Positions 21,211 to 26,578 of a stretch of DNA of 64,000 bases are shown piece after piece. The notes below the pieces were generated by a model, which did not search any database, had not been told where the DNA came from, and saw only the letters and a program-made list of their open reading frames with translations. The stretch's first letter is position 1, and every line of letters starts with the position of its first letter. Source of the DNA: Escherichia coli (GTDB lineage Bacteria; Pseudomonadota; Gammaproteobacteria; Enterobacterales; Enterobacteriaceae); the NCBI RefSeq assembly GCF_050920415.1, contig NZ_CP169309.1. One strand, written 5' to 3'. Made by a program: the position numbers and the translations under genes.

Positions 21211-21411
21211 TTACTTCTTCGGTTGATCCTTTTTCGGCCAATCGTCGTCATCGTCCCACTTATCGTTGAAATCACGATGCGGGGGAAGCTCCGGCTTGTT
21301 GGCGAGAAATTTCTTATGGTCGACGCGCTTGAGATCTTTAATCACGTTCAGCAGGACGCCAACCAAAAAGACAATCACCAGAATCCACCAATATTTAGCC
21401 AGCCAGTCCAT
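21211..21411 (-). CDS. ypfN: Small membrane protein YpfN (UPF0370)
   Basis: Starts [26 protein letters not shown]; 66 aa with one TM helix and acidic tail. Confidence 0.85.
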
Positions 21412-22569: not shown

Positions 22570-22944
<375 letters not shown>

Positions 22945-23306
22945 TTATGAGAATAAATACTCATTTAAGGGTGAAAACATTTTGCCTGCAAATCATTATC
23001 AAGAAATATAACATTATCGAAGTATTCAAATTAACAACTATTAAATAATATTAAACATTTTTAACGTAAGCATTAAGAATATTCATCTTGTTATCTGCCT
23101 GTATTTTAAACAGAATTAAACCAGTACTAGATTCCGTATGAATATCTCGAAATGTTGCTGTGTATCACATACAAATCATTGCTGCAGGACCATAGTATTT
23201 ACATAAAGTTTGTCCCCCGGAGGTAGTCATCGCAGCAATCGAGTAAATTAGCTTCACCACGGTATATTGTTTCCGTAGAATACCCATAATTATAAGAGAG
23301 GTTGTT

Positions 23307-23366
23307 ATGATTGAACGTGAACTGGGGAACTGGAAAGACTTTATCGAAGTTATGCTTCGTAAGTAA
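23307..23366 (+). CDS. ypfM: Small protein YpfM (19 aa)
   Basis: ATG...TAA encodes MIERELGNWKDFIEVMLRK with GAGAGG SD 6 nt upstream; not in ORF track because it is under the length cutoff; recognised as K-12 ypfM. Confidence 0.7.
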   Translation: MIERELGNWKDFIEVMLRK

Positions 23367-23425
23367 TTCCTGAGACAAAGTACAAACAGAAAGTACCTGC
23401 TGAACAGGTTCTTTATCGGAAAGTT

Positions 23426-23458
23426 GAAAAAGGCGACACATTGGTATGTCGCCTTTTT
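23426..23458. terminator. Bidirectional rho-independent terminator (ypfM / acrD convergent)
   Basis: AAAAAGGCGACA-cattggta-TGTCGCCTTTTT: GC-rich stem flanked by A-run and T-run. Confidence 0.75.
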
Positions 23459-23464
23459 AATTGC

Positions 23465-26400
23465 TTATTCCGGGCGTGGCTTCAGCGGGAAGCGGCGGCG
23501 TACCAACACAAAGAACAGCGGCACGAAGTAAATAGCCAGAATCGTGGCCGAAATCATCCCGCCCATTACGCCAGTACCCACCGCATGCTGGCCACCGGAA
23601 CCGGCCCCTGTGCTGGTTGCCATTGGCAATACGCCGAAGATAAAGGCCAGAGAGGTCATCAGAATCGGACGTAAACGCTGACGGCAGGCGTGGAGCGTCG
23701 CTTCAAACAGGTCGTGGCCTTTTTGGTTCATCTCGTTAGCAAACTCGACGATAAGGATGGCGTTTTTCGCCGATAAACCAATCACCGTTAACAGGCCTAC
23801 CTGGAAGTAAACGTCGTTTTCCAGCCCGCGCAGCCATGTTGCCAGCAGCGCGCCGATAACGCCCAGCGGCACGACCAGCATCACCGAGAACGGCACCGAC
23901 CAGCTTTCATACAGCGCCGCCAGACACAGGAATACCACCAGCAATGAAATGGCATACAGCGCCGGAGCCTGCGCGCCGGAGAGTCGCTCCTGATACGACA
24001 TCGCCGTCCATTCCAAACCAAAGCCGCTTGGCAACTGCTTCACTAACGATTCCATAATATCCATTGCCGTACCGGTGCTGACCCCCGGCGCGGCTTCCCC
24101 GACAATCTCTACCGCTGAATAACCGTTATAGCGTTCCAGACGCGGCGAGCCTGTTTCCCAGCGTGAGGTCGCGAAAGCAGAGAAGGGGACCATGCCACCA
24201 TCTTTATTTCGTACATACCAGAGATTGATGTCATCTGGCAGCATGCGATATGGCGCAGCTGCCTGCACATAGACTTTCTTCACGCGACCGCGATCCATAA
24301 AGTCATTCACATAGCTCGAACCCCACGCGGTTTGCAGCGTGTCGTTAATATCGTCGATAGCAACGCCCAGCGCCTGAGCTTTACGCTGATCGATATCAAT
24401 CTGCAACTGCGGACTGTCGTCGAGGCCGTTATGGCGTACACGGGTTAACTCCGGATTTTCCGCCGCCAGAGCCAGCAACTGGTTACGTGCTGCCATCAGC
24501 GCATCGTGACCCGCACCAGCGTGGTCCTGCAACTCCATATCAAAACCCGCAGAACTGCCAAGGCCACTAATTGCTGGCGGGCTGCTGGCGATAACGCGAG
24601 CTTCTTTAATCTTATTAAATTCCTTCGTTGCACGTTCGATAATGGCAAACGAGGTGCCGGTCTTACTGTCGCGTTCGCTCCAGTCTTTCAGGCGGATAAA
24701 CATTCGCGCCACGTTTTGCCCGTTACCCCCAGGGCCAGAACCAACGGTGGCAAACACTGACATGATGTTGTCTTTTTCATGGGTGAAGTAATATTTCTCG
24801 ATTTGCTCAACGACTTTCAGGGTCTGTTGTTGGGTTGAACCGCTGGGCAACTGTACCGAGGTAGTAAACATGCCACGGTCTTCCAGCGGCAAGAACGACG
24901 TCGGCAAACGCAGGAACAGGAACACCATGCCGCCAAGCAGCAGGACATAAATCACAATCCAGCGCAGGCTACGGTGGAGAATTTTTGCTACCCCTTTTTC
25001 GTAGCGTTCGGCGTTGCGGTTAAACATCTGGTTAAACCAGGCAAAAAAGCCTTTTTGCCCGTGATGCTCACCTTTTTTCAGTGGCTTAAGTAGCGTGGCG
25101 CACAGAGCCGGAGTGAGGATCATCGCTACCAGTACTGACAGCACCATCGCCGCAACAATGGTAATAGAGAACTGGCGATAGATAGCTCCGGTGGTGCCGC
25201 CGAAGAAGGCCATTGGCACAAATACCGCCGACAGCACCATCGCAATCCCGACCAGTGCTCCCTGGATCTGCCCCATCGATTTACGTGTGGCTTCGCGAGG
25301 AGTGAGTCCTTCCTCACTCATAATACGTTCGACGTTTTCCACCACCACGATGGCGTCATCCACCAGCAGACCGATCGCCAGCACCATCGCGAACATGGTT
25401 AAGGTGTTGACGCTGTAACCGAAGGCGTAAAGTACGGAGAAGGTTCCCATCAACACCACCGGCACGGCGATAGTTGGTATCAGCGTGGCACGGAAGTTTT
25501 GCAAGAACAGATACATAACGAGGAAAACCAGGGCGATAGCTTCCAGCAGCGTTTTCACCACGTCTTCAATGGAGGCTTTAACAAATGAGGTGGTTTCATA
25601 TGCCACCTTGTATTCCAGTCCATGTGGGAAGTACTGCGCCAGTTCGTCGAGACGATTGAGTACCAGCTCCGCTGTTGCCATTTCGTTCGCGCCGGAGGCC
25701 AGTTTTACCCCCAGCCCGGAGGCTGGCTTACCGTTGAAGCGGCTGAGATAATCGTATTTCTCTGCCCCCATTTCGACGGTGGCGACATCGCCCAGCCTTA
25801 CTTCTGAGCCGTCCTGATTCACCCGTAAGGTGATATCGCGGAACTGTTCTGGTGTTTGCAGCAGTGACTGGGCGTTAATGGTGGCGTTGAGCGCCTGCTT
25901 ATCGACGGAAGGCGTACCACCAAGTTGCCCAACCGCAATCTGCGCGTTCTGTGACTCAATGGCATCAGTGACATCTTTAGCCGTCATCTGAAAACTGTTG
26001 AGTTTCGCCGGGTCCAGCCAGATACGCATTGAATATTGCGAACCATAGGCATCGATATCCCCGACGCCATTCACGCGGCTTAATGGGTCCTGAATATTAC
26101 TGGCAACGTAATCGGCAATATCCTGCTTATCCATCGAACCATCGGTAGAGACGAAGGCAATGGTAAGAATGTTGGTATCGCCGGTTTTACGCACCGTCAC
26201 GCCCTGATTTTGCACCGCCTGCGGCAACTTTCGCATGGCTGATTGCAGCTGGTTTTGTACTTGCTGCACTGCTTCGTCCGGATCGGTGCCCGCTTTAAAA
26301 CTTAAGGTGACAGATGCCTGACCGGTGCCACTGCTTTGAGACGACATATACATGATATTATCGAGGCCGGTCATATTTTGCTCGATAACCTGGGTCACGG

Positions 26401-26578
26401 TGTTTTCCAGCGTCTGAGCCGATGCGCCGGGGTAGTTAGCGGTTACTCGCACGTTAGGCGGTGCAAGATCCGGGTATTGTTCAACGGGCAATGAGAAAAT
26501 CGCCAGGGTTCCTGTCAGACACAACAGGATTGCCAGCACCCAGGCAAAAATGGGGCGATCAATAAAGAAATTCGCCAT
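23465..26578 (-). CDS. acrD: RND aminoglycoside/multidrug efflux pump
   Basis: 1037-aa ORF, 12-TM RND transporter, starts [19 protein letters not shown]. Confidence 0.95.

Follow-up and report, generated by a model that had tools for sequence, protein, structure and literature searches.

The 19-codon reading frame between yffB and acrD of Escherichia coli is the small-protein gene ypfM, whose product is probably a single amphipathic helix

How much can be made of an open reading frame of only 19 codons is the question raised by the spacer between yffB and acrD in the stretch of Escherichia coli DNA analysed here (64,000 nucleotides of contig NZ_CP169309.1, referred to below as the window). 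An ATG at 23307 opens a frame on the + strand that closes with a TAA at 23364-23366, and the product of 23307..23366 is MIERELGNWKDFIEVMLRK. The original prediction, made from the letters of the window, had described this ATG-to-TAA frame in the yffB/acrD spacer and had blamed a length cutoff for its absence from the list of open reading frames. The frame translates as described, and the list has a minimum of 20 aa, which 19 codons do not reach. The features on which the following considerations draw, in order along the window, are these:

22570..22926, - strand: yffB, encoding an ArsC-family reductase, the divergent neighbour (ORF list, RefSeq).
23155..23196, + strand: candidate distal promoter module, with TTGC-N6-TCACA at 23155-23169 and the -10-like hexamer CATAGT at 23191-23196.
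23253..23281, + strand: proximal sigma-70-type promoter, TTCACC at 23253-23258, a 17-nt spacer, and TAGAAT at 23276-23281.
23282..23306, + strand: 5' leader with the Shine-Dalgarno (SD) motif GAGAGG at 23296-23301 and a 5-nt spacer to the ATG.
23307..23366, + strand: ypfM coding sequence (CDS), 19 codons plus TAA (translation, K-12 identity, NF033843, selection).
23367..23426, + strand: ypfM 3' UTR containing a small hairpin (23395-23409); differs between genera and within E. coli.
23427..23458, both strands: bidirectional intrinsic terminator, GGCGACA/TGTCGCC core with A5 and T5 flanks, for ypfM (+) and acrD (-).
23465..26578, - strand: acrD, encoding an RND efflux permease, the convergent neighbour (ORF list, RefSeq, tblastn synteny); its stop codon is at 23465-23467.

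The identity of the frame is straightforward. In K-12 MG1655, ypfM (b4606, YP_001165325.1, 2590807-2590866) is likewise flanked by acrD and yffB, and it has the same 60-nt CDS and the same 19-aa peptide as the window. The two DNAs are 100% identical from upstream of the -35 hexamer to 23 nt beyond the stop codon, the sole difference between the two genes being five SNPs in the 3' UTR, grouped about the small hairpin. For a strain that shares all 601 queried nt with the window, RefSeq lists 'protein YpfM' (WP_001386977.1) at the position of this frame. The NCBIfam equivalog NF033843 (small_YpfM) matches over profile positions 1-19 of 19 with 59.2 bits (E 2.4e-16) against a cutoff of 33 bits, the query having been padded with one N-terminal residue (V, the in-frame upstream codon). 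Database searches with the padded peptide or with longer orthologues returned no Pfam family and no PDB relative. The recognition of K-12 YpfM in the original prediction, and the comparison with the K-12 annotation that it had suggested, are thus borne out; the frame in the window is confirmed as the known E. coli small-protein gene ypfM, an already known and ordinary feature.

The 601-nt stretch around the frame was matched in 5425 of 5426 complete E. coli genomes; 4787 of 5424 E. coli records (88%) have the 60-nt CDS without a single change. One complete genome had no match to the locus at all, and the 5444 matching places include a single plasmid record. The window also holds a second small-protein gene, ypfN, at 21211-21411 (-), just downstream of dapE (66 aa from an internal position), which in the matching strain carries the RefSeq name 'YpfN family protein'.

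Whether the frame is to be counted as a gene on its own evidence is a separate matter. There are 407 ATG-initiated frames of 15-30 codons in the window, and an SD-like motif stands at a suitable distance in 14 of them; because such frames are this common, a short frame plus SD does not in itself rise above chance, and we had to consider a fortuitous reading frame within a non-coding sRNA or a spacer. It is the comparative data, conservation and frame-specific selection, and not the presence of a frame and an SD, for which we count ypfM as a gene. We sampled 80 loci from different species anchored on YffB, so that the sampling was independent of the conservation of ypfM itself. In 71 of these 80 loci a ypfM-like frame is found upstream of yffB and pointing away from it, the carriers being all sampled genera of Enterobacteriaceae together with Dickeya, Hafnia, and some Erwinia and Yersinia. 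Within the set of 72 sequences made up of these 71 loci and the window, the product is exactly 19 aa long in 68; residues M1, E5, W9, K10, F12, I13, M16 and L17 never vary, positions 4 and 15 are hypervariable, and the entropy at the three codon positions is 0.28, 0.28 and 0.77. At L6, all six synonymous Leu codons are found across the orthologues. The pooled Nei-Gojobori ratio pN/pS is 0.18 in the ypfM frame as against 1.67 and 1.84 in the other + strand frames, while synonymous sites vary freely (pS 0.53). The peptide is therefore under frame-specific purifying selection. With this selection, with length, start, SD and stop conserved across 71 species, and with direct detection of the product by mass spectrometry (MS; PMC12529367), a chance frame can be dismissed for practical purposes, common as SD-bearing short frames are.

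An 80-aa ATG frame on the opposite strand (23199..23441, -), which lies antisense across the whole of ypfM, was also considered and is taken to be a chance frame, as it is broken in 16 of 50 orthologous CDS versions and is unannotated.

Some orthologues depart from the common length. Those of 20-25 aa (e.g. MIDVELGTWKAFIEAMLARAYLAEK) come from the Yersinia, Erwinia and Hafnia loci L066, L067, L077 and L079, and their scores of 28.8-32.5 bits fall just below the NF033843 cutoff of 33, so that such divergent orthologues may escape automatic naming. One of the four that were tested was found in the protein collection, as 'protein YpfM [Yersinia enterocolitica]'. The Dickeya versions (L074 and L076) have 19 aa, and their genes lie between cspE and yffB, without acrD.

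How the constraint is distributed along the locus indicates what the gene consists of. Mean identity to the window over the 72 sequences is 0.46 upstream, 0.58 in the promoter hexamers, 0.77 in the leader and 0.89 in the CDS, falls to 0.20-0.32 in the 3' UTR, and is 0.66 in the terminator. The GAGAGG that had been proposed as the SD is indeed located 5 nt ahead of the ATG; across the 72 sequences the ypfM SD AAGAGAGG is near-invariant together with its spacing, and the same can be said across genera of the leader element ATAAGAGAGG and its spacing. Further upstream, TTCACC-17-TAGAAT was the only sigma-70-type match in a consensus scan, with a predicted start near 23288, and its -10 hexamer reads TAGAAT, TAAAAT or TATAAT in the different genera. 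The same pair of hexamers has been given as the constitutive RpoD promoter of ypfM by Shimada et al. (PMC3946193). The yffB/ypfM spacer beyond it, at ~22900-23150, has a GC content of 22-29% in 100-nt windows, and a composition so rich in AT agrees with the report of H-NS in this spacer (PMC3946193). In Salmonella, a MarA ChIP peak lies in the yffB/ypfM spacer (PMC10268841).

At the other end, the strong bidirectional terminator that had been placed at 23426..23458 holds up as a hairpin at 23427..23458 with a 12-bp stem, A5/T5 flanks included. The folding energies are -18.9 kcal/mol (+ strand, z -5.3) and -18.4 kcal/mol (- strand, z -5.7), and none of 200 shuffles folds as well; we call it bidirectional because a T-run follows the GC core on both strands. 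Of the 72 loci, 71 have a terminator-like hairpin behind the ypfM frame; its stem comes in 40 distinct versions and covaries, with compensatory changes in an alignment of eight genera. A partial Rfam match to CsrC (22.9 bits; gathering score 61) is confined to the hairpin at 23427-23458, and we put it down to terminator resemblance.

The 3' UTR lying between stop codon and hairpin behaves quite differently. The distance from stop codon to terminator stem ranges from 27 to 178 nt (median 62) over the 72 loci, and the segment is polymorphic even within E. coli: the 60 nt adjacent to the CDS share 80-95% identity with the window in every E. coli record but 18, the window's allele being a rare one that is found at at least 99% identity in only 18 of 5426 complete genomes. 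The window and K-12 alleles both appear hairpin-capable around 23395-23409, each with a different mismatch, as judged by eye with the window allele alone having been folded. Read from these patterns, the constrained unit is promoter, SD, reading frame and terminator, which together make a self-contained monocistronic small gene.

That the gene is translated is supported here by the selection on its frame and, for the peptide itself, by published MS work on E. coli (PMC12529367). In that study, top-down MS covered 100% of YpfM with the N-formyl-Met retained, the peptide was also detected by DIA and PRM, with PRM reproducible in M63 medium low in Mn, and YpfM is described as commonly identified in proteomics, an intact peptide that accumulates (PMC12529367). 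The transcript has been seen in Salmonella, where the ypfM orthologue was recovered as STnc250 in the Hfq co-immunoprecipitation (co-IP) of Sittka et al. (24 reads against 6, or 4-fold; PMC2515195). A Northern blot showed a stable RNA of ~220 nt whose level depended on growth phase, and the authors reclassified STnc250 as the small ypfM mRNA (PMC2515195). In S. Typhi RNA-seq, ypfM RNA was the most abundant of the mapped RNAs of the Hfq set (PMC2704369). The literature that we found mentioning ypfM gives no function, phenotype or partner for the product, and a paper of 2025 still lists it as "of unknown function".

The length of the Salmonella RNA raises the possibility of another start. From the proximal promoter, the predicted Salmonella ypfM RNA would be ~150 nt, as against the ~220 nt seen (PMC2515195); because this prediction is too short, the real start may be at a module farther upstream. 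There, ~100 nt upstream of ypfM, the pattern TTGC-N6-TCACA is exactly present in 53 of the 72 loci. In 47 of these 53, the best -10-like candidate within the interval searched proved to be CATAGT (42 loci) or CATATT (5 loci), and in these the 3' end of the hexamer lies 34-35 nt from the centre of the TTGC-N6-TCACA site. A start near 23203 would place that centre at about -41.5, the class II position of activators of the CRP/FNR family, and the RNA predicted from the distal start would be ~264 nt in E. coli and ~235 nt in Salmonella, the latter nearer to the ~220 nt of the Northern blot. A class II CRP/FNR site was taken to be a 2-fold symmetric TGTGA-N6-TCACA or TTGAT-N4-ATCAA with its centre near -41.5 relative to a mapped start. 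The right half-site TCACA is a perfect CRP half, while the left half is the non-consensus TTGC in all 53 loci, which leaves it uncertain whether CRP or FNR would be the activator; over the core positions the site agrees with CRP at 7 of 10 and with FNR at 6-8 of 10. The pattern alone is not rare (2 occurrences in the window against 0.94 expected), and because it is common by chance its weight comes only from its conservation and fixed spacing. Taken together, the distal TTGC-N6-TCACA and CATAGT look like a second, activator-type promoter, which we offer as a lead rather than a result. The conserved upstream block was also considered as the core promoter of yffB, and this was rejected: a Salmonella yffB reporter fusion starts at -97 from the AUG, which places the yffB start near 23023 of the window.

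The Hfq data bring in the possibility that the ypfM transcript (STnc250) both encodes YpfM and acts through Hfq-dependent base-pairing, as AzuCR or SgrS does. Rfam RF01409 (STnc250, Hfq-binding RNA) matches 23346..23465 over the full model (1-94, E 1.4e-5), the Salmonella RNA was enriched 4-fold in the Hfq co-IP (PMC2515195), the transcript is closed by a U-tailed terminator, the kind of module to which Hfq usually binds, and AzuCR, a 164-nt RNA that encodes a 28-aa amphipathic protein, is a precedent (PMC8915982). However, the RF01409 score of 39.4 bits is below the Rfam gathering score of 42, even though the region is clearly orthologous; the shortfall is due to the 3' UTR, which differs in both length and sequence between E. 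coli and Salmonella. STnc250 comes from the ypfM locus and corresponds to the 3' part of the ypfM transcript, from the end of the CDS to the terminator, and is equated with the ypfM mRNA by its authors, so that we regard it as a piece of that mRNA and not as an independent non-coding RNA. Over the CDS and 3' UTR of the 72 loci we found no RNA segment constrained beyond coding that might serve as a seed region: no seed-like stretch is conserved apart from the CDS, SD and terminator, the 3' UTR has the low identity, variable length and E. coli polymorphism described above, and the free variation of synonymous sites argues against an additional RNA-level constraint within the CDS. The enrichment with Hfq is weak and may come from nothing more than the U-tailed terminator, its authors themselves having called STnc250 a small mRNA (PMC2515195). 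For these reasons we consider a second, base-pairing function unlikely.

The shortness of the frame also invites the thought of a cis-acting leader or arrest peptide, for which the act of translating would matter and not the free product. The invariant W-K-x-F-I core is loosely reminiscent of arrest peptides, and the leader peptides TnaC and MgtL are likewise detectable by MS (PMC12529367). Against such a role speaks that nothing co-oriented lies downstream of ypfM: in E. coli the terminator is followed by the convergent acrD, and across the loci the conserved terminator (71 of 72) comes 27-178 nt after the stop codon. In addition, intact YpfM accumulates and is commonly identified in proteomics (PMC12529367). 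A leader-peptide role is, in our opinion, very unlikely.

The ypfM gene is divergent from yffB and convergent with acrD, with which it has the terminator in common, and acrD adjoins ypfM in this convergent orientation in 66 of the 80 species loci. This arrangement suggests that YpfM might be a dedicated accessory of the AcrD efflux pump, a functional analogue of AcrZ, the 49-aa accessory of the RND pump AcrB. The tail-to-tail position with a common terminator in 66 of the 80 loci, and the survival of acrD adjacency where 1-3 kb have been inserted between ypfM and yffB (L048, L052, L066, L067), are in favour of this idea. The linkage is, however, universal on neither side: two Dickeya loci have the order cspE-ypfM/yffB without an RND gene, one Yersinia locus has ypfM with neither acrD nor another RND gene, and two Erwinia loci have acrD but lack ypfM. 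Neither AcrD nor YffB is thus an obligatory neighbour of ypfM across species. Moreover, the convergent arrangement makes no operon, and the co-occurrence of the two genes is confounded by shared ancestry. The likeness to AcrZ is that of a small protein, tied to an RND pump in the case of YpfM by gene position only; AcrZ is a transmembrane helix, whereas YpfM has no transmembrane helix and is charged and of a soluble type, with a gene convergent to acrD and not universally linked to it. AcrZ is co-regulated with acrAB. Because neither neighbour linkage is universal, we keep an AcrD-specific role as a rival of low probability, improbable though not as far-fetched as the leader peptide.

The absence of a membrane-spanning segment follows from composition. 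Four acidic and four basic residues leave YpfM with a net charge of ~0 while making 8 of its 19 residues charged, and the mean Eisenberg hydrophobicity is -0.12; by the hydrophobicity test used for small membrane proteins and type I toxins, no hydrophobic transmembrane segment was found. From this charge and hydrophobicity we infer a peptide that would not span the membrane.

A helix seems the likely fold. The hydrophobic moment of YpfM peaks at 100 degrees per residue with a value of 0.546, a height that 2.7% of shuffles reach, so that the test is only moderately significant (p ~0.03). Residues I2, E5, L6, W9, I13 and M16 fall within +/-60 degrees of the direction of the moment, with F12 and L17 at the edges of the face, and the four most variable positions (15, 4, 8 and 11) all point at least 115 degrees away from it. 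When YpfM was fused to YffB through a linker and modelled by AF2 with species-paired rows, peptide residues 2-18 formed one helix, with pLDDT values of >90 for YffB and, in this artificial construct, ~57-72 for the peptide and <50 for its first residues. The model supports a helical peptide. The fusion, which provides no interface readout, gave no sign of confident docking of YpfM on YffB, and with the peptide at pLDDT ~57-72 the run gave YffB no support as a partner. We infer that YpfM is probably a single amphipathic alpha-helix with its invariant residues on one face.

Because the invariant hydrophobic residues all lie on one helical face, binding to a partner suggests itself. Docking onto a larger protein is the mode of action of most characterised bacterial microproteins, and we propose the same for YpfM, putting the chance that its conserved face docks onto and modulates a larger protein at about evens. 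The closest working analogue is perhaps AzuC, also a tiny amphipathic-helix protein made from a short stand-alone transcript with an intrinsic terminator, which binds GlpD (PMC8915982) and was detected, as YpfM was, in M63 low in Mn by the MS study cited above (PMC12529367). This is an analogy of working principle only, as the two have no sequence relationship. They also differ in that both a base-pairing function and a partner have been demonstrated for AzuCR, and neither for ypfM, which has no conserved non-coding segment.

The best explanation of these findings, to which we assign a probability of roughly 0.85, is that ypfM is a free-standing monocistronic small-protein gene. It comprises a match to a sigma-70-type promoter (TTCACC-17-TAGAAT), a ~20-nt leader and its strong conserved SD, the 19-codon frame under frame-specific selection, ~60 nt of non-conserved 3' UTR, and the bidirectional terminator common to ypfM and the convergent acrD. 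Published work on K-12 and Salmonella has shown the short mRNA to be stable and the intact formyl-Met peptide to accumulate in cells. There, the peptide would adopt a non-membrane amphipathic helix, with hypervariable positions 4 and 15 on the side opposite the invariant face, and this face may dock on a larger protein partner and thereby modulate it. One may go further and imagine that the face docks on one specific, conserved partner, for which gene position makes AcrD the first candidate, so that YpfM would be a soluble-type RND-pump regulator; and/or that the transcript has a second role as an Hfq-bound RNA; with expression from an apparently undescribed, conserved class II CRP/FNR-type promoter ~100 nt upstream. 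We hold this extended version to be unlikely.

As a discovery the feature carries little weight, since the K-12 annotation has included ypfM for years, the NCBI pipeline assigns the name automatically, and the product has direct MS support. Its correct recovery from sequence, in spite of the length cutoff that hid it, is rather a useful sanity check on the scan. Few proteins that are consistently detected in E. coli are nevertheless as short as YpfM, and its conservation reaches through the Enterobacteriaceae and past them. A search for the partner and the regulator of this small protein could start from several comparative results: one conserved face of the helix, a 3' UTR that can be dispensed with, a linkage to acrD and to yffB that is imperfect, and, upstream, a conserved promoter module of activator type.
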